A stretch of 18,189 nucleotides of DNA from an uncultured cyanobacterium (GCA_963749915.1 CAVVOP010000023.1:1-18189), one strand, 5' to 3'; positions 110-18,189 are shown, counted from the first letter of the stretch. The notes: generated by a model not told the origin, from the letters alone. Translations and numbers: made by a program.

Positions 110-364
110 ATGATTATTACCGATACTGGTTTTTTTGTAGCTTTAGGTAATAAGAAAGATAATTTTTATCATTTAGCTAAACAACAACTTTTAACTCTTA
201 AAGAACCATTAATTACCACATATCCAGTAATTGTAGAAACAAGTTATCTACTTTTTGAGAGAGCAGGAAAAGAAGCTCAGTTTAAATTTTTGCATCAGTT
301 AACTAAAGATAGTATTAATATTTTTCAACTAGAAAAAAATCATTTAATAGGTAGAAGAACCTGA
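110..364 (+). pseudogene. vapC: PIN-domain (VapC-like) toxin, 3'-truncated
   Basis: N-terminal MIITDTGFFVAL and TTYPVIVET motifs of PIN proteins. Only 84 aa, and the C-terminal DxxD acidic residues are absent. Confidence 0.75.
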
Positions 365-397
365 ATAAATATAGAATAAAATTAATTTCTCTTAAAA

Positions 398-1458
398 ATG
401 AAACGTTATGGCAATTTATATTCTCAAATAGTGGATTTTGATAATTTATATTTATCGGCTAAAAAAGCCCAAAAAAGTAAACGATTTAGACCAAATGTTC
501 TAGCTTTTAATTATAACTTAGAAACGGAATTACTTACTCTGCAACAAGAATTAATCAATAAAACTTACCCAGCCCGGTGAATATCGCACCTTTCGTCTTC
601 GAGATCTGAAAACTCGCTTAATCTCAGCAGCACCCTATCGAGATAGAGTGGTTCATCATGCTTTATGCAATATTATTGTACCGATTTTTGAGAGGACATT
701 TATTAGTGATACTTATGCTAATCGGGTTGGTTTTGGCACTCATAAAGCCCTCAAAAAATTTACTCAATTTGCTCGTTATCATCGTTATGTTTTACAATGC
801 GATATTAGAAAATATTTTCCCACTATTGACCATGAAATTCTCAAAGAAATCATCCGTCGTAAAATTAAATGTCCAGATACACTTTGGTTAATTGATACAA
901 TTATTGATAATAGTAATGAGCAAGAACAGATTATTCAATATTTTGCAGGAGATGATTTATTAACACCAATAATGAGAAGAAAAGGTTTACCAATTGGTAA
1001 TCTAAGCTCGCAAATTTTTGCCAACGTCCTCCTCAGTAATTTTGACCATTTTATCAAAGAAAAATTAAAAGCTAGAAAGTATGTGCGTTATGTTGATGAC
1101 TTTGGCGTTGTTTAGTAATGACTATCAATTTTTAAGAGAAGCCCGAATAGGAATAGAAGAATATTTAAGTAAATTAAGATTAAAAATTCATCCGATCAAA
1201 AGTCAATTATTTGAAACTAAAATAGGGGCAACTTTTCTGGGATTTAGAGTATTTCCCCACAGAATTAGAGTGAGAAATATGAATCTTCATCGAGGCAGAA
1301 AAAGAATAAAAAGATTGCAAAAAGACTATGCAGAAGCTAAAATTAACTTAAAAGATATTAAACAATCATTACAAAGTTGGGTTGCCCATTTAGAATATGG
1401 TGACACCTACCAACTAAGAAAACAGATATTCAGTGACCTTGTCTTTACAAGGGATTGA
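398..1458 (+). pseudogene. DGR-type reverse transcriptase split by two +1 frameshifts (352 aa when corrected)
   Basis: Removing one C at 568-570 gives [35 protein letters not shown]. Removing one G at 1104-1105 gives YVDDFALFSND. Motifs: [22 protein letters not shown] (the SQ form typical of DGR RTs), YVDD and FLGF. A TR/VR pair lies next to it. Confidence 0.93.
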
Positions 1459-1480
1459 AGAGGGGATAGACGAACCCGAC

Positions 1481-1603
1481 TGCGGGGTGGTTCATGGAAC
1501 AATAATCCGAACAACTGCCGTTGTGCTTACTCGCAACAACAATAATACGCGCGCGAACAACAACAACAATATCGGTTTTCGTGTGGTGTGTGTGTTCGGG
1601 AGG
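1481..1603 (+). repeat. DGR template repeat (TR)
   Basis: 123-nt near-copy of 2790-2911 with 14 AAC/AAT codons. 17 of the 19 substitutions versus VR fall at TR adenines, plus one extra T at 1531. Confidence 0.95.
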
Positions 1604-1754
1604 TCTCTTCATTGCCAGAGTCTTCAGGTGGGAATCTGGAGAGCGTGTATCCGAAGAGTCCAGTCTTATTCCTGCGATGCTGGTAACAGTATCCAAAAAT
1701 AAATTGGGTTGGAGAGCTTGGTAAGCTATTATTGGCTGAAGAGTTTTTCAACCC
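1604..1754 (+). ncRNA. Structured spacer 3' of TR, probably part of the DGR template RNA
   Basis: Hairpins at 1621-1642 (TCTTCAG/CTGGAGA), 1676-1693 (GATGCTG-GTAA-CAGTATC, GNRA loop) and 1706-1754 (14-bp stem with G-U pairs and an inner hairpin). Confidence 0.55.
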
Positions 1755-1826
1755 TTAAAATCAGTCATCAGTAAAGCATGGTAATACTGCTCACGCCTGC
1801 GTGCGAAAAACTCACTGTAGGGGGAA

Positions 1827-1852
1827 AGTAATGAGTAATGAGTAATGAGTAA
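1827..1852 (+). repeat. Heptamer tandem repeat (AGTAATG)x3.7, STRR-like
   Basis: Read directly from the sequence. Confidence 0.85.
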
Positions 1853-1900
1853 GTAGCAGAGAAATTTAGGTTTGAAAACGACCAATTTGGGGAGTTCAAG

Positions 1901-1934
1901 ATTCGTAATTCGTAATTCGTAATTCGTAATTCGT
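1901..1934 (+). repeat. Heptamer tandem repeat (ATTCGTA)x4.9, STRR-like
   Basis: Read directly from the sequence. Confidence 0.9.
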
Positions 1935-1990
1935 CAATTAATACCTTGAATAAAAATCATATTGACAAAACCCTCGCAGTATTGTAAAGC

Positions 1991-2920
1991 ATGGTTGAAA
2001 TTATTACTTTTAGCGAAAAAAAACCGATTCAAATTTTTACCGAAGAACTAGGTAATGGTGTCGAACTAGAGTTAGTACAAATCCCTTCAGGTCGCTTTAT
2101 TATGGGTGCTCCAGCCTCAGAAATAGGTAGCCAGAGTAGTGAAAGACCGCAACATGAAGTCAGAATTAGTAGTTTTTTGACGGGACGTTATCCTATAACT
2201 CAAAGACAATGGCAAGCGATCGCTAAGAGGAATGATCTGAAAAAAGATAGAGACTTAAATCCAGATCCTTCAAGTTTTAAAAAGCCATATCAAGGAAGAG
2301 AGAGAGGGGAAAGACCAGTAGAACAAGTAAGCTGGTATGATGCCGTCGAATTTTGCCAGCGATTATCAAAACTAACAGGCAGAAATTATCGACTTCCCAG
2401 TGAAGCCCAATGGGAATATGCCTGCCGAGCAGTGACCAGTGAGCAGTTATCAGTTACCAGTGAGCAGTTATCAGTGAGCAGTGAGCAGTTATCAGTGAGC
2501 AGTGATGAATCAGAAATCAATCAAATTATATACTCCCCCTTTCATTTTGGTGAAACTATCACCTCAGATTTAGCAAATTATAATGGAACTGAGATTTATG
2601 CAGACGAACCAAAAGGAGTCTATAGAGAAGAAACAACTCCGGTTGGGATGTTTCCACCTAATGCCTTTGGTTTGTACGATCTGCACGGCAATGTCTGGGA
2701 ATGGTGTGAGGATACTTGGCATGAGAACTATCAGAACGCACCCACGGATGGCAGTGCTTGGATTATCGAAGACGAGAACACTGCTGTAGTGCGGGGTGGT
2801 TCATGGGACGATGAACCGAGCAGCTGCCGTTGTGCTTACCGCGGCGATGCTGATACGCGCGCGGACGGCAGCAGCTATATCGGTTTTCGTGTGGTGTGTG
2901 TGTTCGGGAGGACTTCATAG
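1991..2920 (+). CDS. DGR target protein, formylglycine-generating enzyme (FGE-sulfatase/SUMF1, CLec-fold) domain
   Basis: Motifs IPSGRFIMG, ERPQHEV, PVEQVSWYDAVEFC, YRLPSEAQWEYACRA, PNAFGLYDLHGNVWEW and RGGSW...IGFRVV. The C-terminal VR matches TR. Confidence 0.95.
   Translation: MVEIITFSEKKPIQIFTEELGNGVELELVQIPSGRFIMGAPASEIGSQSSERPQHEVRISSFLTGRYPITQRQWQAIAKRNDLKKDRDLNPDPSSFKKPYQGRERGERPVEQVSWYDAVEFCQRLSKLTGRNYRLPSEAQWEYACRAVTSEQLSVTSEQLSVSSEQLSVSSDESEINQIIYSPFHFGETITSDLANYNGTEIYADEPKGVYREETTPVGMFPPNAFGLYDLHGNVWEWCEDTWHENYQNAPTDGSAWIIEDENTAVVRGGSWDDEPSSCRCAYRGDADTRADGSSYIGFRVVCVFGRTS
2430..2506 (+). repeat. Eleven CAGTKAN heptamers inside the target CDS, translated as V(T/S)SEQLS repeats
   Basis: cagtgac cagtgag cagttat cagttac cagtgag cagttat cagtgag cagtgag cagttat cagtgag cagtgat. 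Confidence 0.92.
2790..2911 (+). repeat. DGR variable repeat (VR)
   Basis: 122-nt match to TR at the 3' end of the target gene. It ends in an invariant GT-rich tract shared with TR, then diverges at an IMH/IMH*-like boundary (AGGACTTCA versus AGGTCTCTTCA). Confidence 0.95.
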
Positions 2921-3002
2921 CCCTTTTTCCTTTTCCCCTTTTACCCTTTACACTTCTTTTTACTTTTTCTCTCTCAGTTAGGCGCATTAAGCAGGGTGGG
3001 CG

Positions 3003-3218
3003 AAAAAAAGGGGTAAGGCAGATAAGTTGAGGTTTCTGAATATCGCACAAGGTTCGGTTGAAGAATGCCGATATTATTTGATTTTGATACAAGATTTACA
3101 ATATGCTCAGACTCAGAAATTGTCTGTACTTTTACAAGAAGTTAGTAAAATCCTTGAGGCTTATTCTCAGAGCATCGAAAATAAAAAAACTCCTAACTTG
3201 AAAATAAAAACTTATTAG
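3003..3218 (+). pseudogene. C-terminal half of a four-helix-bundle protein (23S rRNA intervening-sequence protein family)
   Basis: In-frame KKRGKADKLRFLNIAQGSVEECRYYLILIQDLQY is characteristic of this family. The N-terminal half is missing. Confidence 0.75.
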
Positions 3219-3252
3219 ACCTCTTGCAAAAGTTAAAAAATCTGGCCGTCAG

Positions 3253-3280
3253 AGGAGTCAGGAATCAGGAGTCAGGAGTC
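3253..3280 (+). repeat. Heptamer tandem repeat (AGGAGTC)x4, STRR-like
   Basis: aggagtc aggaatc aggagtc aggagtc. Confidence 0.85.
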
Positions 3281-3402
3281 AATACTGCGAAGGATTTGAA
3301 AAATTCCTGTGGTGACAAGGATAGGGAAGAGGGGAAGAGAGGCTTGGATAATCACCCCATTAAGCATAGTTTTTTCGCTCAGGATTTGCTATAAAATATT
3401 AT

Positions 3403-5179
3403 ATGCTTAACGTGAGTTCGACGGAGCTAAAAATTCAGAAAATTATGAGTTTTTCTAACTTGTTTAATACCTGAATTCCTGATTCTCTCGTTGAAAAAAA
3501 TTGTCCTGAGCGGGCAAAGGATCTAACTCCGCTCGGTACGACTGCGAAGCAGCACCCCGAACTCCTAACTCCGAACTCACGTTGCTTAATCCTTATTTGA
3601 CTTTAGTTTTAATTAGTTTTTTTTTCTTCCAGGGAATAACTATCTCCTAGCTCAAGATTATTTTTTCGTTCCAGAAAATACTCCGGTTCGGGCAGAAACT
3701 AATAGTTTTATCTTAAAAGAAGTAATCGTTGAAAATAGTACTGTTTTTACTGAAAAAGATTTTTTACCTCTGATTAAACCTTACTTAAATCAAAGAGTAA
3801 ATCTAACAGATTTAGAGAATTTAAAAAGAGAATTAACCAATTTATATCGGCAAAAAGACTATTTTAATTCCTTTATTATCTTACCGCCGCAAACCTTTTC
3901 TGACGGAAAAGTAACCTATCAAGCCAGAGAAGGAGAACTGGTTAGTTTAAAGATCAAAGGCTTAATTCATTTAAAACCAAGTTACATTCAAGCCAGAATT
4001 AAAAACGCCCTTAGTACTCCTGTTTCCCGTCAAAAGATAGAGTCAGCCTTGATCCTACTGCAACAAGATCCTTTAATTGAAACAATCTCCGCCAATTTCA
4101 ACCAAAGAGGTAATCGAAACCAAGCCGAAATCACTTTAACTATTCAAGAAGCACCGCGATTTCAGGTGGCAGTTAGAAGTGATAATGAAGAAAATCCGAT
4201 GATCGGGAGCTGGGGTTTTTCTGTTCTCGGTTCTGCCCAGAATCTAAGTGGATGGGGAGAGCGGTTGAATTATCAGTACAAAATTACCACTGAAACCGGC
4301 TTATCCCAAGTAGATGCTTTCTATTTTTTTCCCCTGACTGCCCATGACCAATTAAACTTAGAATTTAGAGATAACGATACCACCATCTTAGCCGAACCTT
4401 TTGCCGATTTGGATTTAGTTAACCGCAGTAGCACCCTCGGCATTGGCTACCAGAGATCGCTGCTGAAAACCATCAACAATAGTTTCGCTTTAGGCTTAAA
4501 ACTCGATTTAGTCGAAACCGAAGCCTTTATTTTTAACGATACCCCCTTTCCCCGCTTCGACGGCAAAAATCGACTCAACTTAACCGTCTTACGCTTCAGT
4601 CAAATATATACCAGTAATTCGACCGATTCCTTTTTCGCCCTTAGTTCCCAATTTAACTTTGGTCTTAACGCCTTCGCCGCTTCTCGGGCGAGTGAATTTA
4701 TTGATCCTGATTTTTTTTCCTGGCAAGGAATAGCCCAATATGCCCAAAAATTAACCGATGATTTAATTTTCTCGGTTCAAATTCAAGGTCAATTAACCCC
4801 TAACTCCTTACCGATTACCGAACAATTTGCCATTGGTGGCATCAATACCGTCAGAGGTTATCGTCGTAATATTCGTATAGGCGACAAGGGCTTGATTTTT
4901 TCTGCGGAATTAAGGCAAAAGATTTGGCAAGATCTTGATTGGGGCATAGTGCAAGGTTATTGCTTCTTCGATACCGGAGTAATCGGTAATAATAAATTAC
5001 CTCAAATATACCCCAACACCTTAGCTAGTATTGGCTTAGGCTTAAACTGGGAAATCCAATCAACTGCCCTTCTGGGAATCAATTATGGCTTAAAATTAGT
5101 CAATGATCCTAGTTTTGGCTCAGGAACCTTACAAGACGACGGCATTAACTTATTTTTTCAATTACAAACCAAATTTTGA
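3403..5179 (+). CDS. TpsB (ShlB/FhaC/HecB family) outer-membrane transporter, 5' end disrupted by the MITE and a T9 frameshift
   Basis: The frame of the 4049 ORF is open from 3617 and encodes a POTRA domain (FILKEVIVENSTVF...LTNLYRQKDYFNS..LPPQ). It has EQFAIGGINTVRGY (VRGY motif) and a terminal Phe. The signal peptide MLNPYLTLVLISFF lies in another frame upstream of the T9 run at 3617-3625. Confidence 0.85.
3409..3583. mobile_element. 175-bp MITE with 12-bp terminal inverted repeats and a 4-bp target duplication
   Basis: TIRs AACGTGAGTTCG (3409-3420) and CGAACTCACGTT (3572-3583). GCTT is duplicated at 3405-3408 and 3584-3587. A partial second copy is at 6002. Confidence 0.85.
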
Positions 5180-5228
5180 GCTTTTTTTCTAGCTGCAAGT
5201 GTTTTATTTTTGAGTTTTGACTTTTGCT

Positions 5229-5996
5229 CTATCTCGCTTTATGGGCTGAGATAAAAACAAAACGATCTCTGAATTCTAAATTTGATTGTTCCTGATATTT
5301 TTGCTTCATTTGTGTTAATCCTTGCTGTAGCTGTTGCTCATCAAATCTTGAAAGTAAGGACATATATCGATTTTCGACCATCTCAAAATAGTTTTCTTTC
5401 GAGATAGAGACAGGATAATCAACAAAATTGACTGTAGTTTGAAAGCCAATTTTTTGTAATAAATTTACGAGATCATTATAATGCGGTTGCACAGCTTCAT
5501 AGAGACGCAAAGCTTCTCTAAATAAAGGATATTCAATGCGAGGAGGAAGCAAAATTAACAATAAGATTCCTCCAGAATTTAATCGTTCTAATAATCCTTG
5601 TAACAACTTTTCTTGATCCTTAATATGATGAATCATTTCTTTGATTAAAATTTTGTCGTATTGTCCTGATTCATCAGCAAATTCCACCGCATCTTTAATT
5701 AGTGGTTGATATTGATTACTCCGAGGAATTTTAGCCAACATTTTGTCAGACGGATCAACACAAATGATCGGATTATCTAACGGTAATTGAGAGATAATTG
5801 CTTTACTGTAAATTCCTGTACCACAACCGAGGTCCACTAAAATATCCTCCGAAACTAATTTTAAAGATTCAATGATCTTTTGGGTTAAAAAATTGATAAA
5901 TTCTGGAGATGAGCCCCAAAATTGATCATATTTCTGAGCCAAAGTTTGATAATGATTTTGGATTGAATATTTCACTAGACTTTCACAGTTTTTCAA
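5229..5996 (-). CDS. Class I SAM-dependent methyltransferase
   Basis: Motif I VDLGCGTG, VDPSDKML, and a MIHH motif. The true start may be the GTG at 5975. Confidence 0.88.
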   Translation of the reverse strand: MKNCESLVKYSIQNHYQTLAQKYDQFWGSSPEFINFLTQKIIESLKLVSEDILVDLGCGTGIYSKAIISQLPLDNPIICVDPSDKMLAKIPRSNQYQPLIKDAVEFADESGQYDKILIKEMIHHIKDQEKLLQGLLERLNSGGILLLILLPPRIEYPLFREALRLYEAVQPHYNDLVNLLQKIGFQTTVNFVDYPVSISKENYFEMVENRYMSLLSRFDEQQLQQGLTQMKQKYQEQSNLEFRDRFVFISAHKAR

Positions 5997-6001
5997 GTTT
6001 T

Positions 6002-6071
6002 AACGTGAGTTCGACGGAGCTAAAAATTCAGAAAATTATGACTTTTTCTAACTTTTTTAACACCTGAATTC
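6002..6071. mobile_element. Truncated copy (left end only) of the 3409-3583 MITE
   Basis: 6000-6071 matches 3407-3478 at 69 of 72 positions. There is no right TIR. Confidence 0.85.
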
Positions 6072-6092
6072 TAAATTCGCGCATTCTAAATT

Positions 6093-8561
6093 TTACCTAC
6101 ATTCTTCTACCGTTTCTTCTGATGCCAGCAAATGGACAGTACCATCATCCATAACCACCATTCTGGTGGCATCAACCATGGGGTTACTGGCAGTTTTTTT
6201 AGCAATAGCAGCGATTTCTGGATCGGAAAAAGGAATAAACGAATAACTCACCTGTCCCGTTAACGATCGCCCTCCGAGTCCGCGCTGGAGGATTTGAATC
6301 GCTGATTCTGATTGACCATCAAAGCAACCTTGAGTAATTAATTGTTCTTCGGCAAATTGAGTAGGCTTAGAGGTTAAATCATTGATTTCGTAGATGTCCC
6401 CATTAATCTGTACTTGTCCATCAATACCTAACTCCGAAGAAGCAGAAATAATTGATTCTGAACCCATTAAAACATTGCCATTAATCTCGATATTGCCTCC
6501 ATTTCCTTGAAAAGCATTAGCGGTAATCTGACTATTTTCCCAAACCAGTAATAAATCACTATGGAGGTTAATATTGCCCCCATCACCTTGATTTTCAGCA
6601 CTGGCGGTAATTTTACTCCCATTTTGTAGCAACAGAGAGTCACCTTGTAGGCTGATATTTCCGCCCCTGCCAGAAAAAGTCTCCGCCGAAATGCTCCCTT
6701 GATCTAAAACTGTTTTTTCCGCTAAAAGGTTGATATTGCCGCCATTGCCGCTTCCTTCATTGGTAACATTAATTAAGCCACCATGGGCGATCGTTAAATC
6801 TTCGGTGTTGATCTCAATGGAACCAGCATTGCCCGAAGGAATTTCTGGGAGATTGAATAGCTCGGTCAGAAAAGAAATTGACTTGTTGGCAGAAGAAGAA
6901 ATCTGACTGGGGGTACCAGATAAATTTTGCCCAGTAATTTCAATGGAGCTGGCATTAATAATCATATTACTGGCATTGCCGGTGGCGTTGGTATTGGTGT
7001 TTATCGATCCCCCTGAAGCCAATTTTAGTTTGTTGGTAGAGATAACGACTTCGCCGGTATTTCCCGAAAATAAAGTCAAGCTTCCTATGGCACTAGAAAT
7101 GAACTCATTTCCTTGTAAATCCGCGGCAACTGAGCCGGAAACTTCTACCTCGTCAGCAACCGTAATTTCTAGATTGCCACTGTCTCCCGTTCCTAAACTT
7201 TGGGATATGAGCAAGCCACCATTTTCCACTGAAAGTCTCTTGCCTAAAATCAAGATATCTCCCGCTCTGCCTGTGCCTGCTCCTAAAGAAAGAATTGAGG
7301 TAGGCAAGAACAAGTTTATTTGCTCGCTTCCTTCTATTTGGAGATTTTCGGCAATATTCAAGAGCAGAGAGCCTCCCTCTCCTCTGGCGAAACTGAGTGC
7401 CGAGATGGTGCTAAAATCTTGTACCGATAAATTTTTAGCAGAGATAATAATATCCGCACCCTTGCCCTCCGAGAGAGTTTGAGTATAAATACCTCGAATT
7501 ATATTGTTATTATTTAGTCCCTGAAGCGAAAATTGGTTAAAATCGGTAATTCCTCTTAAATTCACCTCCTCAGTGGCTTTAATCTTGAGGGAACCATGAG
7601 GAGCATTGCCAAAATTAGTAATCATCACAACGGCACCATCTTCAATTGACACATTCTTTGCCCGTAGGTTAATTTGACCATTGGAGATCCCACTGGCATC
7701 TAAAAGAGCTTGTTGATGGAGGCTAATATCTTGGAATTGAGATATTCTCTCATAATTCAAAGTGAATCCGTCCTTATTTTCCGAAAATTGAACAATTCCC
7801 CTCTCCACACTTGCCAACTCAATTTGTCCGGAAAATGCGGTTAAAATTCCATTATCAATGATAATTTCGCCGCCAATCAATCCTAAAGTTTTCCCCGGAT
7901 TAGTTCTCAAACCAGTCTGACTCTCTCCACTGCCCAAAAATGGACCGTTAAAAGATCTGTTATCGATGGAAAACCCGTTGCCAAACTTTAACTGATGACC
8001 AGTTCCCTGGACAATAATTTGTCCAGGGTTATTTCCAAACCCTAATCCCATGGGACTATTAGCGGTCAGTAAGGGCTTTCGCTCAGTACTAGCCGTAGCA
8101 AATTCAAATCCATCGGCGAAAATAATCCGATTGGCCGTGCTACCAAAGAAAGAACCTCCAACCGCTAGAGTTGCACCAGAACCAAAAATAATACCATTGG
8201 GATTGAGAAAAAATAAGTTAGCTGTACCGTTAGCTGCCAGAACTCCGCCAATGTGAGAGAGAGAATTTCCTGTGACGAGGCTAAAAATATTCTCAACGTT
8301 TAAAGCATTGTTGAACAAGGCAACTTGCCCGCTGAGAACCGAAAAAGCCTCAAAAGTATGAAAAAGATTACTGCCACTAGCTGTGCCGCCATTGATAATG
8401 AGTTTATTTCCTTCAGTAATTACGGCTGAATTAACTGGTAAGGAATTATCTGGTCTTATTTGTGCTGTTGATGGAGTAACAGTTAATACTAAAGGAATAA
8501 ATTGAATCAGTACTTGGAAAAGAGTATAAGTTTCTAATCTTACTAATTTCTTAATGTTCAT
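6093..8561 (-). CDS. TpsA filamentous hemagglutinin-family exoprotein
   Basis: Signal peptide ending STA-Q, a TPS domain (NLFHTFEAFSV, NLFFLNPNGIIFG), and repeated GxGGNI beta-helix motifs. The ATG at 8561 avoids overlap with the upstream gene. Confidence 0.92.
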   Translation of the reverse strand: MNIKKLVRLETYTLFQVLIQFIPLVLTVTPSTAQIRPDNSLPVNSAVITEGNKLIINGGTASGSNLFHTFEAFSVLSGQVALFNNALNVENIFSLVTGNSLSHIGGVLAANGTANLFFLNPNGIIFGSGATLAVGGSFFGSTANRIIFADGFEFATASTERKPLLTANSPMGLGFGNNPGQIIVQGTGHQLKFGNGFSIDNRSFNGPFLGSGESQTGLRTNPGKTLGLIGGEIIIDNGILTAFSGQIELASVERGIVQFSENKDGFTLNYERISQFQDISLHQQALLDASGISNGQINLRAKNVSIEDGAVVMITNFGNAPHGSLKIKATEEVNLRGITDFNQFSLQGLNNNNIIRGIYTQTLSEGKGADIIISAKNLSVQDFSTISALSFARGEGGSLLLNIAENLQIEGSEQINLFLPTSILSLGAGTGRAGDILILGKRLSVENGGLLISQSLGTGDSGNLEITVADEVEVSGSVAADLQGNEFISSAIGSLTLFSGNTGEVVISTNKLKLASGGSINTNTNATGNASNMIINASSIEITGQNLSGTPSQISSSANKSISFLTELFNLPEIPSGNAGSIEINTEDLTIAHGGLINVTNEGSGNGGNINLLAEKTVLDQGSISAETFSGRGGNISLQGDSLLLQNGSKITASAENQGDGGNINLHSDLLLVWENSQITANAFQGNGGNIEINGNVLMGSESIISASSELGIDGQVQINGDIYEINDLTSKPTQFAEEQLITQGCFDGQSESAIQILQRGLGGRSLTGQVSYSFIPFSDPEIAAIAKKTASNPMVDATRMVVMDDGTVHLLASEETVEECR

Positions 8562-8596
8562 GGAGTGGGGAATTAACTGCCCTTCGGGCGAGGATG

Positions 8597-10054
8597 TCAA
8601 TGAGAGAGAAATATTTCCGAAGTCCAAGTTCCATGAAATCCGTGTGGAACATGATGTGACAGATAAAGTTTGGCAACCACTTGGGTAATATCTTCTGCGT
8701 TTAAAATGACAAGATAGCTGCGATGAAAAGAAGCATTATATACCATTGAAATAATCCAGCCGTCATCTTCTCCAGTTCCTCCAGGACGAGGAACAAATAC
8801 CGGTTCTCCGGCAAATCCTCGAGGGGCTGGACTCCAGATTTGTCTTTCTCCTGACTTTTTGTCAAGTTTCATAATCGCCTGGATCGGTCCGTTGGTCGAG
8901 GGGGAATGAGTTACGCTCATGTATAGGTAACGATGCTCTTTTCCTACCCATTGAGGGTGTACTGAAGGAAAATCGCATCCTCGAGTTTCTATCTTTTCAC
9001 GAACTACTGTTTTGGAACTTAATGAAAGGGTAAATTGCCATAAATTTCCAGTGGGGAAATCGGAGAAGTTAACTTCTTCAAGGTTCAGTTCTTCTTTTTC
9101 TTTTTTTGGGAACGAATTAGCACAAATTGACTCTAGGTAGATATTTCCGTCTTTTTCCCAAGCATTGCCATGATGAAATCCGAAAAAGGATTCTGTTTCT
9201 AAAATCTCCATCTTTCCGAATTCATGACGGGAGATAATGATTATTTTCGTAGGTTCTTTGGAATCAAAGTTAAAGCATTGCTCTATGCTTTTGAAACCTA
9301 GAAGAAAAGGTAATCCGTTTACCTTAAAAGGATGCTGGATAAAAATATAATAATTAGGTGTTACCAACATATCGTGCAAAAAAGCAAAGCCAGTTAGGGG
9401 ATAGGAATGTTCTTTGAGCTTGTTTCCTTGACTATCTAATTCCAAAATGGTTAATTGTGGTGAAGTAATTCCCCTGACACCAAAATTAATGAAAGTATTA
9501 TCGATAATTCGAGGATGAGCCGAAAAAGGTTGATTAGTTTCTAGTAAACCATTGAGGTTATCTTGACCAATGGTTTCCAATGTTTGTGGCTCTAGCTGAT
9601 GGGGTTGTCCACCTTCCCACAGTGCCCACAGTTTGCCGCCCCAATAAATAACATTGGTATTAGCTGCGTTTTTAAAATTGGTATCGAAAATATTTGCTAA
9701 CCATCCTCCTGGTTTCTGAGTGCCAAAACCTCGATAAAGAATCTTTCCTGCTTCTTGCTCTTTTAAATAACCTTCAGTCTGAACATAACGATTTTGAAAA
9801 TGGGCACGTCCTTGTGCAAAAGTAATGGCACAAATCATTCCATCACCATCGAACGGGTGTCCTATTTTTTGTCCATTGATCGACAATAATCCCGGACCAT
9901 TACGAAAAAGAGTTCCCTGTAAATCATGGGGAATCATCCCCTCAATTTCATCGAGCCAATAGTTATATTCATTAGGCTGTGATTCATAACCCTTCGCCCA
10001 ATCTTTTACTTGATAACTTGGTTCTATTGCATTTTCGATTAATAAATTTGACAT
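8597..10054 (-). CDS. Carotenoid/apocarotenoid cleavage oxygenase (RPE65 family)
   Basis: GTLFRNGPG, HPFDGDG, FSAHP, FLHD, FHH, GEPVFVPRP and HVPHGFHG; the four iron-ligand His motifs are present. Confidence 0.93.
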   Translation of the reverse strand: MSNLLIENAIEPSYQVKDWAKGYESQPNEYNYWLDEIEGMIPHDLQGTLFRNGPGLLSINGQKIGHPFDGDGMICAITFAQGRAHFQNRYVQTEGYLKEQEAGKILYRGFGTQKPGGWLANIFDTNFKNAANTNVIYWGGKLWALWEGGQPHQLEPQTLETIGQDNLNGLLETNQPFSAHPRIIDNTFINFGVRGITSPQLTILELDSQGNKLKEHSYPLTGFAFLHDMLVTPNYYIFIQHPFKVNGLPFLLGFKSIEQCFNFDSKEPTKIIIISRHEFGKMEILETESFFGFHHGNAWEKDGNIYLESICANSFPKKEKEELNLEEVNFSDFPTGNLWQFTLSLSSKTVVREKIETRGCDFPSVHPQWVGKEHRYLYMSVTHSPSTNGPIQAIMKLDKKSGERQIWSPAPRGFAGEPVFVPRPGGTGEDDGWIISMVYNASFHRSYLVILNAEDITQVVAKLYLSHHVPHGFHGTWTSEIFLSH

Positions 10055-10158: not shown

Positions 10159-10222
10159 TTCTGTATTTCTGTAAATCTTTATTTCTTTAAATACAATTAT
10201 CTGTATTTCTTTATTTATAGAA
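10159..10222. repeat. 8-bp periodic iteron array downstream of the par operon (putative centromere)
   Basis: ttctgtat ttctgtaa atctttat ttctttaa atacaatt atctgtat ttctttat ttatagaa. Confidence 0.7.
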
Positions 10223-10456
10223 AAACTCTTGTAATAATTCTCTTAGTAAGTCAGCCATAGGTATCCCTTCTTGAACTGATTTAAGTTTGATTGCTTTATG
10301 AAGCTCTTCACTAATATCAAGAGTCAATCTTTTCATCTTTACTTTTGGTTTTGGCGACTCTTGTTTTACTTCTTCTAGATTACGATTAGATACCCACTCT
10401 TCCATTTGCTCAACTTTATTAGTAGGTTTTTTGCCGATACTTATTTTCTTAACCAT
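10211..10456 (-). CDS. Ribbon-helix-helix centromere-binding partition protein (ParG-like)
   Basis: 81 aa with a flexible N-terminus and KRLTLDISEELHKAIKLKSVQEGIPMADLLRELL. Its start overlaps the parA stop. Confidence 0.85.
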   Translation of the reverse strand: MVKKISIGKKPTNKVEQMEEWVSNRNLEEVKQESPKPKVKMKRLTLDISEELHKAIKLKSVQEGIPMADLLRELLQEFFYK

Positions 10457-11081
10457 AACTTAATAACTCCTTCATTAATGATTTAATCTCTTTAACCGCA
10501 CTATTATTACGACTGGTTTCCAATACAGATTGACCAGTAATGGCCGATTCAGCAAAAATAACTCGTTGACAAATTTGAGTTTTCGCTACAGGAATGGAGT
10601 ATTGTTCAAGAGCTTCCGCTATATCTCTACCGATCGCCGTATTTACTATTTTACGATTAATTACAAATACAGATTTCAGTGTTTCTTTAAATACAGAAGC
10701 TTCGTCAATTATTTTAACTGTTTCTGCTACTGCCCAAATATCATAAGGAGATGGTTGCACAGGAATAACAACTAAGTCAGCGGCAAGGATTCCAGATCTA
10801 GCTAAATCTGATACTCTAGGTGAACCGTCAATAACCACATAATCATAATCTTGAGCCATTTTTGGTAAATCTCGATGAATAGTAGGACGATCTAATCCCA
10901 CCACCATAAAAGGTAATTCATCTTCTCTAGCATTAGCCCAATCTCTAGCTGAACCTTGAGGATCTGAATCAACGAGTAATACTTTATTGGGCGACCTTTT
11001 TTTGGTTAAAGCATAACTAAGGTTAATGGAGAGAGTAGTCTTTCCTACCCCTCCTTTTTGACTTTGAATACTGATTATCAT
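10449..11081 (-). CDS. parA: Type Ib partition ATPase (ParA/ParF-like)
   Basis: Deviant Walker A KGGVGKTT, VDSDPQGS, YVVIDGSP and PVQPSPYD. 210 aa with no N-terminal HTH. Confidence 0.95.
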   Translation of the reverse strand: MIISIQSQKGGVGKTTLSINLSYALTKKRSPNKVLLVDSDPQGSARDWANAREDELPFMVVGLDRPTIHRDLPKMAQDYDYVVIDGSPRVSDLARSGILAADLVVIPVQPSPYDIWAVAETVKIIDEASVFKETLKSVFVINRKIVNTAIGRDIAEALEQYSIPVAKTQICQRVIFAESAITGQSVLETSRNNSAVKEIKSLMKELLSYG

Positions 11082-13038: not shown

Positions 13039-14034
13039 CTAAACCATATCAGCCAGGATATTAACCGCTTCTTTCTGCAAAGCGACTCTATTATCATCGT
13101 AGCGAGTCAAAACATCTAAATTCTTATGCCTCGATAACTTTTGAGCCATGCGTACATTACCATTTGAAGCATCGAGTACCGCAGTAATCGAACTATGCCT
13201 TACTCGGTGAGGAGATAAAATTTTGTCGCTTAATACCTCATCAGCATATTTTCTGACAATGCAGTAAATACTTTTTCCTGTTAATCTATTGCCTCTAGTA
13301 TTGTGGGCTAGACTAATAAACAGGGGTGATTCAGGTTGAGGATTAGAGTAACAAGATAGCCAATTATTTAAAGCTGATACCGTCTTCGGTGCTAAATGAA
13401 TGACCTGTTTACCGATTTTACCCTTACCCTTAATTCTCAAGGTAGAATCAGCTTGATCATAATCAGCGATGGATAGATTACTTATCTCAGAACGTCTTAA
13501 AGCATTATCCCAAAGTAACCGCATAACGGCATAATCTCTTTTACCAGATAAAGTATCGGTGTCAATACCAGATAAAATCTGACTAAAACTATCCTTACTT
13601 ACCCCAGAAGTATCTCGATAAACCTCATTCCCTAGACTCTTTAAATCTTCAATTAACCAATTACAAAAACCTCTTTTAAAAGCAAATTTTACTAAACTAC
13701 GAATAGAAGCAATGCGGATGTTAATACTATTGGGAGTATAATCAGCCTCAATTAAATCTAATTGATATTGAGCAGTGTAAGCGATGGCCCTCACCTTTTC
13801 AAAACCTAAAAACTCACCGATAACCGCTTTGATTTGGATGTCAGGTAAAACTATCTTCTGACATTTATTTAAGAACCCATGAATCAGATAATGAGCAAAA
13901 TACTTGAGATTTTGACGATAAGTTTGACGGGTAGAAGCCTTATGCTTAGAAGCAATTAAAGCCTCAATAATACAATCGAGCGACTGATTCAAAGGCTGAA
14001 TCAAGCCACCATTGGCAGTAGCTAACTGTGTCAT
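13039..14034 (-). CDS. Tyrosine recombinase, XerC-like plasmid resolvase/integrase
   Basis: RDYA..LLWDNALRRSEI (catalytic R), KGKG (K), SPHRVRHS (HxxR), SRHKN (H) and TRYDD (Y). Confidence 0.93.
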   Translation of the reverse strand: MTQLATANGGLIQPLNQSLDCIIEALIASKHKASTRQTYRQNLKYFAHYLIHGFLNKCQKIVLPDIQIKAVIGEFLGFEKVRAIAYTAQYQLDLIEADYTPNSINIRIASIRSLVKFAFKRGFCNWLIEDLKSLGNEVYRDTSGVSKDSFSQILSGIDTDTLSGKRDYAVMRLLWDNALRRSEISNLSIADYDQADSTLRIKGKGKIGKQVIHLAPKTVSALNNWLSCYSNPQPESPLFISLAHNTRGNRLTGKSIYCIVRKYADEVLSDKILSPHRVRHSSITAVLDASNGNVRMAQKLSRHKNLDVLTRYDDNRVALQKEAVNILADMV

Positions 14035-14247
14035 AATATTAATTAATCAGATTAAAATCGATAGCTACCAAGCCCTTGGTAGTTATTTTACTATCAGGGG
14101 TTAGCTGATATACAAAATGATCGACTTTTTATATAAATAACTGTAGGGAAAAAGAGTCTTGCTGTCAAAGGGTACGAAAACCCGCATTAGCATACCCTAA
14201 AATTATTGTATGTATCACATATACTTGGGATCTTAAAGTTTAACGAC

Positions 14248-14281
14248 AAAAAAAAGAAGGCAGGGGCAAACAACCCCCACC
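14248..14281 (-). terminator. Putative intrinsic terminator of the adenine-free ORF
   Basis: Minus strand GGTGGGGGT-TGTTT-GCCCCTGCC (9-bp stem with three G-U pairs) followed by TTCTTTTTTTT, 7 nt after the TAG. Confidence 0.6.
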
Positions 14282-14288
14282 AGAGCCA

Positions 14289-14573
14289 CTAGGGAAGAGC
14301 AGCCCAAGCACCCCACCCACGAACGGGCGAGGACGCAGGAACAACAACGGGAACAGACACAACCCAGCACCCCGAAACAGCAGGACAACAACGAACCGCC
14401 ACCGCCGAGAAACCGCAAACACCAGCCCACCGCCGAGCAAAACCCGAAGCCAAAGCCAACGAACCAAACCGAGCCACCAGACGGAAGCCACCACCAGAAC
14501 GCCCCGGACGCAACCACCAAGAGCAACAGCCACAAGCCAACGCCGAACCAGAAACAACACGGAAAGAAACCAC
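14289..14573 (-). CDS. Adenine-free small ORF, 94 aa, function unknown
   Basis: GTG start at 14573, 9 nt after GGGGG. All 94 sense codons lack A, and the only A in 360 nt is in the TAG stop. A terminator-like hairpin follows. Confidence 0.65.
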   Translation of the reverse strand: MVSFRVVSGSALACGCCSWWLRPGRSGGGFRLVARFGSLALASGFARRWAGVCGFSAVAVRCCPAVSGCWVVSVPVVVPASSPVRGWGAWAALP

Positions 14574-14929
14574 GGGAACAAACCCCCAACGAAAGAACAG
14601 CTTCTTTTCACCCGTTCTCATTTTTCACAGTGAACTTTGATCTGTGCGCAAGGCAAAAATAAATAAATGGAGCGTAGCCGTTACGAAGACTATAACTAAC
14701 TAGAACTAAACTATGGCGGCGGAGCGACTTCAATTAAGGTGTTGCCTAGTCGCACCACAGAACGGGTATACTAGAAAAGCGGTCGTGTCATTGTCTCACC
14801 AGTTCCAGCCACGCAGTGACCTAGGGTCGGAAACAGTAGCCTTTGAGATAAACCGAAGGCAAAAAGACTATGTTTTTAACTGTATTTCAAGCTAGATATT
14901 AATATATATTAAGAAAAGTATCTAGGTAA

Positions 14930-15139
14930 TGGTTTTTCAGTTATAATGAATGGCTTACCCTTGAAGAGAAACAGAAACTACAATGGACAGCGTATTCAGA
15001 GCCTTCTGTTAACAAGTCAGCTCTCACAACTGCTTTTGAAGGAGTAGGTAGGTATATGCAGGAGATGGTTATCCCAGACGTAAGACGTATTCTGAGGAAA
15101 CAAGATCTTGAATCCAATTCCGCCCTGCCAGATGCCTAA
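14930..15139 (+). pseudogene. 3' remnant of an upstream cassette ORF
   Basis: Open frame WFFSYNEWLTLEEKQK...DLESNSALPDA*. Its TAA lies inside the GCCTAAC inverse core of the attC site, as is typical of gene cassettes. Confidence 0.5.
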
Positions 15140-15335: not shown

Positions 15336-16526
15336 ATGAACTCCTCTACGCTTACGCGCATAAGACCATCCTCGCTGCTACTTTTGTGGGGAGTGCTCTT
15401 TCTCTTCACGGGCATCTTTACCTCCGGATGTGGTGTCTTGGAGCGTTTCGATCGAACGACTTCTGCAATTGAGCAGCTTGAAGCAGATATCGACAGAGGT
15501 ATCGCAATGATCGAAAACGACAAAGAACGGTGGCGATCCACGCTTCAAGAGCTTGCTTCGGACATTCCCAACGAGTTGCAAAGTACCGTACGTGTCGAAC
15601 TCCAACAACTTGCAAACCGCAGTGTCGCCACCGCCGGTACCGAGATACGATGCAACGTCGATTTCCTGGCGCATCGCGCTATCCAAGGACTCCAGCGCGT
15701 GAAGGCTATCCTCAGAAACCGTGATCCTAAGACGCTACCGCCTGAGATATGCCAGGTCTCTCCACTGACGCTTGACATGAATATCGAACGTGCGCGACGT
15801 GTCGATGTCAGCATCAGTGGCTACGACATGGATCATATTGACAACGAGGGAATGCCTCTCCGCTTCGTTTATCGTTCCGATGCCCAGAACAAAACTTTCC
15901 TCTTTCCTGAATCGCGTGTCGGTCGTACGACCCACTATCAAATCACACTTAATACTTCAGGAGCCGATTTCGACCAATTCATCTATGTTCATCAGATTAA
16001 TAAGATCTGGGGAGAATGGGAAGGTCGGAGTGAGTCTCCTCAGGTCAACTTGACACGGTGGGAGCCTCGGAAGAAAGAACTCAAAGTTCCCCTTGGTAGC
16101 TTTGATTACACGCCGCCTCTTACCCATGGTGACCGCGATTTCGATACGGACGATGACGATGAGACCGACGTAAATCTCTCCGTAAGAACCAGACAAGTCG
16201 GTAATCGCATTGAGGCCTCCGTCTACATGAAGGCACGGGAGCGCGATCCGGATAACACGACAGTAGAAGGCTGGTCGCGATGGTTCGTTGGCTACGAAGC
16301 ACCTGCAGGCTGGAAGATAATCAACATAACTCGCCTCGGCAGATCAGATACCTCCTTTGTAGCCACATCACACCAAATGAGGTCAAGTACATTGCCCCAA
16401 GGTGAAATCGCTGACAGGTTTGAGACGTGGATCGACCGCAGCGGTGATGAGGCAGGCAGCTTCACCCGCACAAAGGTTTTTCTGCGCCCAGTAGAGGTTG
16501 AACTAGAACAGATTCCTCCCTTCTGA
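15336..16526 (+). CDS. Predicted lipoprotein of unknown function, carried as an integron gene cassette
   Basis: 396 aa with a hydrophobic signal and lipobox-like FTSG-C, a helical N-terminal region, then beta-rich domains. GC is visibly higher than in the flanking host genes, and it is bounded by attC sites. Confidence 0.8.
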   Translation: MNSSTLTRIRPSSLLLLWGVLFLFTGIFTSGCGVLERFDRTTSAIEQLEADIDRGIAMIENDKERWRSTLQELASDIPNELQSTVRVELQQLANRSVATAGTEIRCNVDFLAHRAIQGLQRVKAILRNRDPKTLPPEICQVSPLTLDMNIERARRVDVSISGYDMDHIDNEGMPLRFVYRSDAQNKTFLFPESRVGRTTHYQITLNTSGADFDQFIYVHQINKIWGEWEGRSESPQVNLTRWEPRKKELKVPLGSFDYTPPLTHGDRDFDTDDDDETDVNLSVRTRQVGNRIEASVYMKARERDPDNTTVEGWSRWFVGYEAPAGWKIINITRLGRSDTSFVATSHQMRSSTLPQGEIADRFETWIDRSGDEAGSFTRTKVFLRPVEVELEQIPPF

Positions 16527-17133: not shown

Positions 17134-17168
17134 GTTAAAATTCCCATTAAGTAAGATGTTTACAAATA

Positions 17169-17207
17169 TTTAGTTAGGAGTAGTTTAGCCCTCTACTCCT
17201 AACTAAA
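17169..17207. repeat. Perfect 15-bp inverted repeat (hairpin)
   Basis: TTTAGTTAGGAGTAG-N9-CTACTCCTAACTAAA. Confidence 0.85.
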
Positions 17208-18189
17208 ATTTTACTCTACTATTAACTATTCGTGACTGACTGTTTACACCATCCCTGCTGTGAGCGTTTTTATGCGTGTTCTGGTGGTCACTTTTCGTGG
17301 GCGGGTAACGTTTCTTCTCCCCCACCCTTTTCACCAGGAATGCGTCTTTGTTTTGTTTTTCTTTGCCACGCGGTCACTGCGTTGGCCAGTCGTCTTTCTT
17401 TTGCGTCATTCAATGACGTCACTGATCGCCCACCCGATTACCGGTCACTGCCCTTTTCTGACTGAATCGTTTGTCCCTAACCCGTATTTCCACTATACCA
17501 TTCCGTTGCCGTCTTATCACTTTGTACCGCTTACCCTACCCCAACCTTAGGCGTTGTCGGAACATCTTGTTTGATTTCCGTTTGCCTTGTTGGAGTCGTT
17601 CTCCTCGTATGCGTTGTGGAAGTGGTGTGCGGTGACGATGTAGTCGTCGTGATGCATTGCCCCCGCAACGAAATGACGAGAAGCAGAAGAGGCAGAGGAG
17701 GCCGAAGATGATGAACACCATGACGGAGGCGAAGGTAGAGGTGGTAACCGCTGCCACCATGTTGTAGCGTGTCGCGCGTGATGGCCTTCAAGGCCTCATG
17801 CCGGCCTTCTAACAACCTTCCACGAGGGCGAAGCTGCATGGCGATGCAGGCTTCAAAGGACGAGTCGATGACACTTATGACCAAACTTGTATTTTGCGTT
17901 TCGTGTTACATCCTTAAGCTCTGCGAAAGGACTGCCCCGTTAAGAGGGTTTCTCGTGCTTTTATACTAGCGCACAAATACGTAACATATTGTACAATCTG
18001 AGTCATGCTTTGTTCTTCGTTCTTCTTTAAAGAGTTGACGGCCTTGAATGACGCAACCCGGTCGTTGGTCCCGGATCAAGGGAAACGTTATCGGCAACGT
18101 TTCCCGTTAGCTCACGTAGGCGTTGCGTAGGCGTTGTTGCGTTGGTGCGCTCGACATACCGGTTCAGTGTTGGAATGTGGTTTGTCAAG

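Follow-up and report, generated by a model that had tools for sequence, protein, structure and literature searches.

Comparison with described systems

The mechanistic prototype of DGRs is that of Bordetella phage BPP-1. According to the established mechanism, an RNA that begins at the RT gene end and covers the TR and a structured spacer is bound by RT and Avd and primes its own copying, which is error-prone opposite adenines; in genes of the CLec fold, the resulting cDNA then replaces the 3´-terminal VR. In cyanobacteria, a well-catalogued group of DGRs is clade 5E (Dore et al. 2024, PMC10907252; Vallota-Eastman et al. 2020, PMC7517822), characterized by a C-terminal CLec VR, CLec-only as well as vWA-CLec targets, remote targets and a link to MoxR and VMAP genes. 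Plasmid-borne and degraded cassettes are described for the cyanobacterial clade in the same two papers. In Trichodesmium erythraeum IMS101 (PMC4143802), the RT gene is followed by a TR RNA of 265 nt and 12 targets, including remote VRs, are served; its RT is inactive in the sequenced genome due to one nonsense mutation and intact in wild relatives. Plasmid p1FD4 of Microcystis aeruginosa FD4 (NZ_CP046974.1), a closed replicon, carries MoxR, a SAV_2336-N (vWA) target, avd, an intact RT, TR and a short CLec-only target as one locus.

The window analysed here is a whole contig of 18,189 nt (C23) from a genome assembly of 4.69 Mb in 34 contigs. Its locus shares with clade 5E the traits of VR, targets and MoxR/VMAP link listed above, and differs from it in that RT and TR are broken as assembled, avd is absent in cis, the RT has the palm motif NLSSQIF and the VR is strongly A>G-skewed. 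The p1FD4 RT is its nearest named relative (77% identity over 351 columns); like p1FD4, the window has the order RT-TR-spacer followed by a CLec-only target, and a vWA target next to MoxR exists in the genome, but on another contig, frameshifted and with an IS behind it. The stretch between the start of the TR and the end of the spacer measures about 275 nt, close to the IMS101 RNA, and remote VRs are common to both; in contrast to the single nonsense mutation of IMS101, we find two frameshifts, two targets, and a DGR known from sequence alone. With BPP-1 the locus shares a structured spacer, a predicted distal duplex and equivalents of residues R74, I181, G182 and Q187, although its RT is just 32% identical, its order is RT-TR-target, it is cellular and not phage-borne, and its VR has no GC inverted repeat after the IMH. 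The target has the FGE-type CLec fold known from the DGR target TvpA of Treponema. The locus is a new addition to the known cyanobacterial clade 5E, broken as assembled, and one more example among those already catalogued. Coordinates of all features are collected in Table 1.

Table 1. Features of the cassette and of its replicon, numbered from the first nucleotide of the window
Feature	Position	Strand	Remarks
Truncated PIN/VapC gene, 84 aa	110..364	+	at the place of avd in relatives; Pfam PIN positions 1-77 of 120, below cut-off
DGR RT	398..1458	+	three frames; +1 insertions near 568 and near 1100-1104; IGNLSSQ at 993, YVDD at 1089
cPRT-Stop-like duplex, upstream arm	1463..1471	+	predicted pairing with spacer 1663-1672; one-base bulge 1666/1667
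TR	1481..1603	+	123 nt; 33 adenines, 14 AAY codons, extra T at 1531
IMH* and 3´ spacer RNA	1604..1754	+	three conserved helices, about 1621-1642, 1676-1693 and 1706-1754
Stand-alone FGE/CLec-fold target, 309 aa	1991..2920	+	Pfam PF03781, structure model
In-frame short-tandem-repeat insertion in target	2430..2519	+	low-confidence loop; C21 paralogue has one too
VR	2790..2911	+	122 nt; variable residues 273-275, 277-278, 285-288, 292-296
Pyrimidine tract after IMH	2921..2975	+	typical of clade; no GC mini-hairpin behind
C-terminal fragment of four-helix-bundle (23S rRNA IVP family) gene, not Avd	3027..3218	+	profile matches
parA-parG partition pair	10211..11081	-	ParA NF041546 over cut-off; Pfam ParG
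XerC-like tyrosine recombinase	13039..14034	-	below every NCBIfam cut-off; relatives on cyanobacterial plasmids

Identity of the element

The element is almost certainly a cyanobacterial clade-5E DGR. Its DGR nature, proposed earlier in a first-pass annotation, is supported by the A-specific differences between TR and VR, by the RT motif and by the RT tree. Our recount of TR 1481-1603 against VR 2790-2911 returned the same 19 substitutions, 17 of them at TR adenines. Of the 33 A sites, 17 are changed, compared with 2 of the 89 other sites (Fisher P=6e-10), and all 14 AAY codons lying in frame in the TR are changed in the VR (14/14). The VR is in frame at the 3´ end of a gene for a CLec-fold protein, and the 3´ stretch common to IMH and IMH* stops at 1603/2911, after which the sequences diverge. 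One point had been missed: TR (123 nt) is longer than VR (122 nt) because of the extra T at 1531, which occurs in neither the window VR nor a second VR on contig C21. A cDNA crossing this base would therefore frameshift the target. The repertoire of 15^14 (2.9e16) given in the annotation is arithmetically correct; it is an upper bound, since PMC12875486 reports that, starting from AAC, no more than 8 of the 14 alternative residues attain 1%.

For recognition of DGR RTs, we looked for [I/V/L]GxxxSQ together with YxDD, as opposed to QGxxxSP of group II and retron enzymes, a distinction taken from PMC7826257. Positions 398-1458 do not represent a single ORF; read across the frames, the RT contains IGNLSSQ and YVDD and lacks QGxxxSP. 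Its central part is 71-82% identical to 80 RTs, mostly cyanobacterial. The nearest intact RTs are 352 aa long and align without gaps at 94.5% (P0001), 91.6% and 88.2% identity. Equivalents of R74, I181, G182 and Q187 are retained, no nonsense codon is present, and 10 of 199 conserved sites depart from the clade consensus (median 7), 8 of these 10 residues being common to both nearest intact RTs. The palm motif NLSSQIF was absent from 167 other RT loci scanned, 13 of which have no readable motif.

In a tree of 22 rows, which drew on 13 of the 73 intact relatives, contained no retrons, had long branches to the outgroup, read the RT breaks as X and was distinct from the published reference set, the window RT groups with the p1FD4 RT and an RT of a Trichodesmium MAG with support 99/96, and a split supported at 100/100 sets the DGR rows apart from the three group II RTs. 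Taking at least 55% identity as the limit of the cyanobacterial DGR-RT group, the window RT lies inside this group. Clustering with group II RTs, which had been named in advance as the outcome incompatible with a DGR, is therefore not what the tree gives. A group II or retron RT accidentally lying beside a chance or duplicated repeat is an exceedingly improbable explanation. It could draw on the top NCBIfam model for the RT, which is a group II RT scoring 86 bits, below its cut-off of 300, with no DGR-RT model among the results, and on databases naming the relatives "retron-type". Against these labels stand IGxxxSQ in place of QGxxxSP, the tree, A-specific differences in two VRs and the search of PDB, in which BPP-1 bRT (E 1.8e-26) is far ahead of group II (3.3e-13) and retron Ec83 (0.11) structures; the structural match, the tree and the VRs together refute a group II or retron identity.

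Structured spacer RNA

The clade as a whole conserves the 150 nt behind the TR. In an alignment of 38 sequences chosen from 59 extracted, the three spacer helices are paired in 97% of cells and show compensatory change in 23 of 27 pairs, slid controls being paired in at most 46%; this one alignment served both to derive and to score the structure, which biases the counts toward it. Position 1666/1667, with its additional base, forms the bulge of the predicted cPRT-Stop-like duplex (-9.4 against -13.2 kcal/mol by duplex folding). A Rfam scan of the whole window returned no match. Conserved stem-loops and duplexes, including an element of the cPRT-Stop type, are reported for cyanobacterial DGRs in 10.1101/2023.10.23.563531, and the notion of a hitherto undescribed spacer structure was accordingly rejected.

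Target protein and surroundings of the cassette

The target was expected to be a lone FGE/CLec domain devoid of any N-terminal signalling domain, and Pfam PF03781 indeed covers residues 27-302 of 309. Its predicted structure (mean pLDDT 83) agrees with the proposed CLec fold, matching PvdO and Treponema TvpA (structure 2y3c, E 4e-18). A cysteine pair preceding RxAAR has the catalytic role in formylglycine-generating enzyme. This pair was not found in the target, where the corresponding stretch is, by alignment, the variable region.

Behind the IMH of the window VR, we found no GC-rich hairpin by an ad hoc rule applied without shuffled control. Among relatives, such mini-hairpin follows 54 of 63 upstream VRs and 6 of 11 downstream VRs, and the hairpin is described as non-essential (PMC5758913). 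A scan of positions 250-3300 for promoters and terminators gave 9 and 2 sites, equal to shuffles and hence uninformative. No avd is present on C23; Avd matches over the cut-off occur in the genome only on C1 and C8, with the full-length copy on C1, whereas avd adjoins the RT in 66 of 74 related loci having at least 700 nt upstream.

Two other DGR loci were noticed in the genome. That of C1 comprises a caspase-nSTAND1-CLec target whose VR has one additional base, an intact Avd, an intact RT of 356 aa (67% identical to the window RT) and a different TR. This TR shows 18 non-A mismatches to the window VR and therefore cannot template it. In the C8 locus, a deletion in the RT reaches into the end of its TR. 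Truncated Avd genes lie on C8 and C5.

A remote target in a conflict operon

The first-pass annotation supposed that the DGR could also act on remote targets and recommended a genome-wide search for their VRs. Such a target does exist: a scan with the last 60 TR bases, adenines serving as wildcards, detected the TR and two VRs only, the second of them at C21:764,176-764,297 (minus strand) in a vWA-CLec gene of a 778-kb contig. Relative to the window TR, the C21 VR has 15 A changes and one other (P=2e-9). Between the two VRs, 19 of the 33 TR-A sites and 3 of the 89 other sites are different; the 169 nt directly upstream of them differ at 26 sites. Since differences between the VRs are concentrated at A sites while their upstream sequences have diverged, the VRs were homogenised by the TR and diversified separately. 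We regard this as a sequence-based demonstration that one TR has written two VRs independently. Other FGE genes and a VR-like remnant (two on C8, one on C22, two on C5, one on C1) were rejected as current targets of the window TR, having 13-20 non-A mismatches each.

The C21 gene encodes a SAV_2336-N (vWA)-FGE protein and follows VMAP-C/EAD1 and MoxR AAA genes; the target thus sits in a VMAP-MoxR-vWA ternary conflict operon, and it is through this remote target that the locus has the MoxR/vWA/VMAP link of clade 5E. As assembled, the gene has a frameshift within its FGE domain and is followed by a transposase of ISAs1 type (read by eye). The ternary conflict system was tied to clade 5E by Dore et al. 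2024 (PMC10907252); as these authors proposed, the DGR products may serve as hypervariable ligand sensors of the conflict system. The genome offers a natural case of a template on probably mobile DNA matching a sensor gene on a chromosome-sized contig, and its second Avd and RT allow cross-use between DGRs of one cell to be tested.

Origin of the lesions

A clean TR/VR signature does not equal a working cassette. The first-pass annotation implied a complete cassette sampling 3e16 variants and overlooked several lesions: two +1 frameshifts interrupt the RT and make it untranslatable as assembled, the TR has one additional base, the spacer contains extra bases, and avd is missing in cis. Our preferred reading of the whole, with a probability of roughly one half, is a clade-5E DGR with two targets acting as conflict sensors, organized as a split module, in which six insertions of one or two bases within 568-1734 would most probably be consensus errors near the contig end; the living element would then probably have an intact RT and TR. 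This is consistent with related contigs from four public runs of three studies (relatives, not the source strain; best word share 0.42), which mostly lack the bases at 568, 1100, 1531, 1664/1666, 1729-1730 and 1734, as seen among 12 of 41 indel rows listed. These runs, RNA runs such as X6 among them, contain only small shares of such sequences and were used as contigs, with no bearing on expression or habitat. In long related contigs over 398-1852, each gap corresponds to a base gained by the window (gap letters 1 + 5 in X6 record 23 and 1 in X2 record 10), and a related piece of 185 nt has 2 substitutions yet 4 gap letters. Error is also favoured by the stop-free RT with its ordinary consensus departures mostly common to the nearest intact RTs, by coincidence of base 1666/1667 with the predicted duplex bulge, and by single IS copies elsewhere in the assembly, where a noisy patch and private +1 insertions occur. 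Against error, a same-genus comparison (219 ORFs from 400 kb of a genome, 186 matched, 153 scorable) gave 149 clean genes and 4 with stops only at alignment ends, so that none of the 153 orthologues (57,432 codons) is internally broken; other long ORFs of C23 are uninterrupted, and a related contig at 95-347, even closer to the contig end, is gap-free. Contig ends in repeats have no insertion bias (11 inserted against 30 deleted bases), small contigs no private insertion in 33 kb of repeats, and some covering contigs do not differ from the window, namely X1 at 568 (0 of depth 9.4) and at 1664/1666, and X4 at 1729 and 1734. A survey of frameshifts based on hexamers (4 in 170 kb of ends, 33 in 4.52 Mb of interiors) was discarded after it had missed the known breaks of the window.

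If, on the contrary, the lesions are real, the locus would be a relic of recent inactivation: its two VRs would either be frozen or depend entirely on the intact Avd and RT of C1 acting in trans. We consider such an origin only somewhat less probable than error, given the genome-wide rate of broken genes of 0/153, the loss of avd in cis and several damaged DGR parts elsewhere (the C1 VR, the C21 target with its IS, the C8 RT, Avd on C8 and C5), two of them hit by IS insertion or deletion; absence of the mini-hairpin behind the window VR also speaks against an intact element. Precedents are the RT of Trichodesmium IMS101, pseudogenised in culture (PMC4143802), degenerate DGR loci in Thiohalocapsa (PMC10907252) and DGR decay documented in PMC7517822. 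Among the 80 related RT loci, a set biased toward intact central regions, 2 RTs are internally broken, 3 are 3´-truncated, 2 are cut by contig ends and 73 are intact. Yet each of the six lesion events is an insertion, accompanying substitutions are almost absent and no stop codon occurs, whereas bacterial sequences decaying neutrally lose bases more often than they gain them and accumulate many substitutions. The C1 TR cannot template the window VR, and service in trans would depend on use of the window RNA by the C1 RT, which is 67% identical. Insertions arising by back-integration of error-prone cDNA were rejected, the RT having no excess of changes. Improbable, finally, is a mis-joined left end of the contig, with a chimeric PIN-RT junction at about 347-367 and the true cassette continuing upstream into avd and a long target. 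No related contig among those listed bridges 347-367 (one piece ends at 347, another begins at 367), the C23 contig end is unique sequence, and avd occupies this place in 66 of 74 relatives; however, holes in contig cover are no proof, 8 of 74 relatives likewise lack an adjacent avd, and an orphan intact avd fitting the cassette was not found, the matches over the cut-off being restricted to C1 and C8.

Replicon and mobility

The plasmid location suggested earlier was based on nearby par and resolvase genes. ParA and ParG are present, while the supposed resolvase is a XerC-like tyrosine recombinase situated 10 kb from the cassette. With 1 HIP1 site where 6.2 would be expected, C23 has the lowest density among all 34 contigs (P=0.015). 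These traits make the plasmid inference plausible, and a mobile origin of C23 is likely. On the other hand, scans of window proteins (18 with Pfam; 10 window references with NCBIfam) recovered no Rep family, the contig lacks a terminal overlap and may be partial, and an internally deleted copy of its par-recombinase region, 93-99% identical, resides in the 940-kb contig C8. On balance we slightly favour a free plasmid; plasmid-borne cyanobacterial DGRs are already known (PMC7517822).

The vWA gene is part of the same locus in 8 of 12 relatives having a downstream CLec target. Compared with this layout (long vWA target-avd-RT-TR-short target), there is an even chance that the window carries an RT-TR-short target module split off onto mobile DNA, which would need Avd in trans.

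A>G skew of the window VR

Among the 17 changes at AAY sites of the window VR, 15 are A>G, whereas codon context in 131 VRs of 99 out of 167 loci predicts 6.4. This skew was noticed post hoc. The share of G exceeds that of every one of the 118 related VRs having 10 or more changes (beta-binomial P=6e-4), the next highest being 10/12 and 9/11 (0.82-0.83). The C21 VR alone has 9 A>G out of 15, which is not significant (P=0.09).

The RT sub-lineage comprising the window RT, P0001 and P0002 has changed palm residues S203, I206 and L/M211 beside IGxxxSQ. It is conceivable but doubtful that RTs of this sub-lineage misincorporate mainly dC opposite adenine, which would yield an A>G-skewed repertoire of Asp, Gly and Ser instead of Tyr, Asp, Leu and Phe typical of the clade; selection on the protein accounts for the skew equally well. 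The T>S change in NLSSQ is insufficient alone, as five scorable loci have 29 G out of 62. A metagenome scan found no relatives of P0001 above 80% identity, and consequently no TR/VR pair of the same RT sub-lineage to score. If true, misincorporation of dC would represent a natural variant tuning the DGR mutation spectrum and identify residues that set it, and a skew intrinsic to the RT would be relevant to engineering of DGR-based diversification. The BPP-1 RT in E. coli likewise favours dC (PMC12875486). Over both VRs, A>T makes up 4 of 32 changes, against about half in the clade.

Target gene and variable repeat

Between positions 2410 and 2620 of the window, the target gene differs from its paralogue on contig C21 (a remote vWA-CLec target gene whose VR matches the window TR) at a single one of 211 nucleotides, and the flanks of this segment are 15-30% divergent from the same paralogue. 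Judging by this sequence comparison, the segment is a recent gene-conversion tract. The tandem-repeat insertion of the target falls inside it.

Of the 17 adenine changes in the window VR (2790-2911), 15 are A>G, a share exceeding that in every one of 118 related VRs. The changes yield D, E, S, G or A residues, with only one aromatic residue. VRs of this clade (the window and loci L041-L120) are followed on their 3' side by a pyrimidine tract of 45-60 nt, about 80% C/T. These tracts mostly terminate in a GC or GNA mini-hairpin plus T run (scored without a shuffled control). The window has retained the tract at 2921-2975, and no mini-hairpin was found after it by the same scoring, likewise without a shuffled control.

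Other DGR loci in the genome

The second DGR possesses intact Avd and RT, a TR and spacer of its own, and a caspase-nSTAND1-CLec target whose VR carries one additional base. A deletion has fused the third RT with its own TR, at the 3' end of the latter. Upstream of this RT, a transposase-like ORF was read by eye, and some 8 kb separate the RT from a copy of the window par-recombinase region that carries a deletion. For the further FGE genes and VR-like remnant on C8, C22 and C5, no matching TR was found in the assembly; truncated avd genes adjoin two of these sites.

Features of the window and of other contigs (C) of the same assembly; L001, L002 and L004 are loci cut from it
Feature	Location	Remarks
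Cargo	window 3500-10054	ShlB/FhaC-type transporter, methyltransferase, TPS-domain protein (844 aa), RPE65/carotenoid oxygenase
ORF, 396 aa	window 15336-16526	within 50% GC segment
Inverted repeat	window 17164-17212	near right end
Inverted repeat	window 17401-17421 with 18036-18056	near right end
Second DGR	L001:2910-7990 = C1:19909-24990	
Third RT	L002:6073-7227 = C8:888069-889226	
Further FGE genes and VR-like remnant	L004 (C8:364908-371737); C22:661905-662663; C5:283333-284088; C5 about 190050-190400	

Remaining parts of the window

A 91-nt repeat occurs at 3407 and 6000. The GC-rich element at 14186-14951 is shared with contigs C7, C8, C9 and C13; by-eye reading places tyrosine-recombinase-like ORFs next to it on C7, C8 and C13. 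The 396-aa ORF has no match in Pfam or NCBIfam, and its nearest ESM Atlas clusters bear DUF8251 (score 0.91, of low recognition value), a link to be taken as a lead only. Both right-end inverted repeats have arms of 20-21 nt that are 90% complementary. At the left end, the terminal part of a probable antitoxin gene (1-109) appears, when read by eye, to change frame near position 33.
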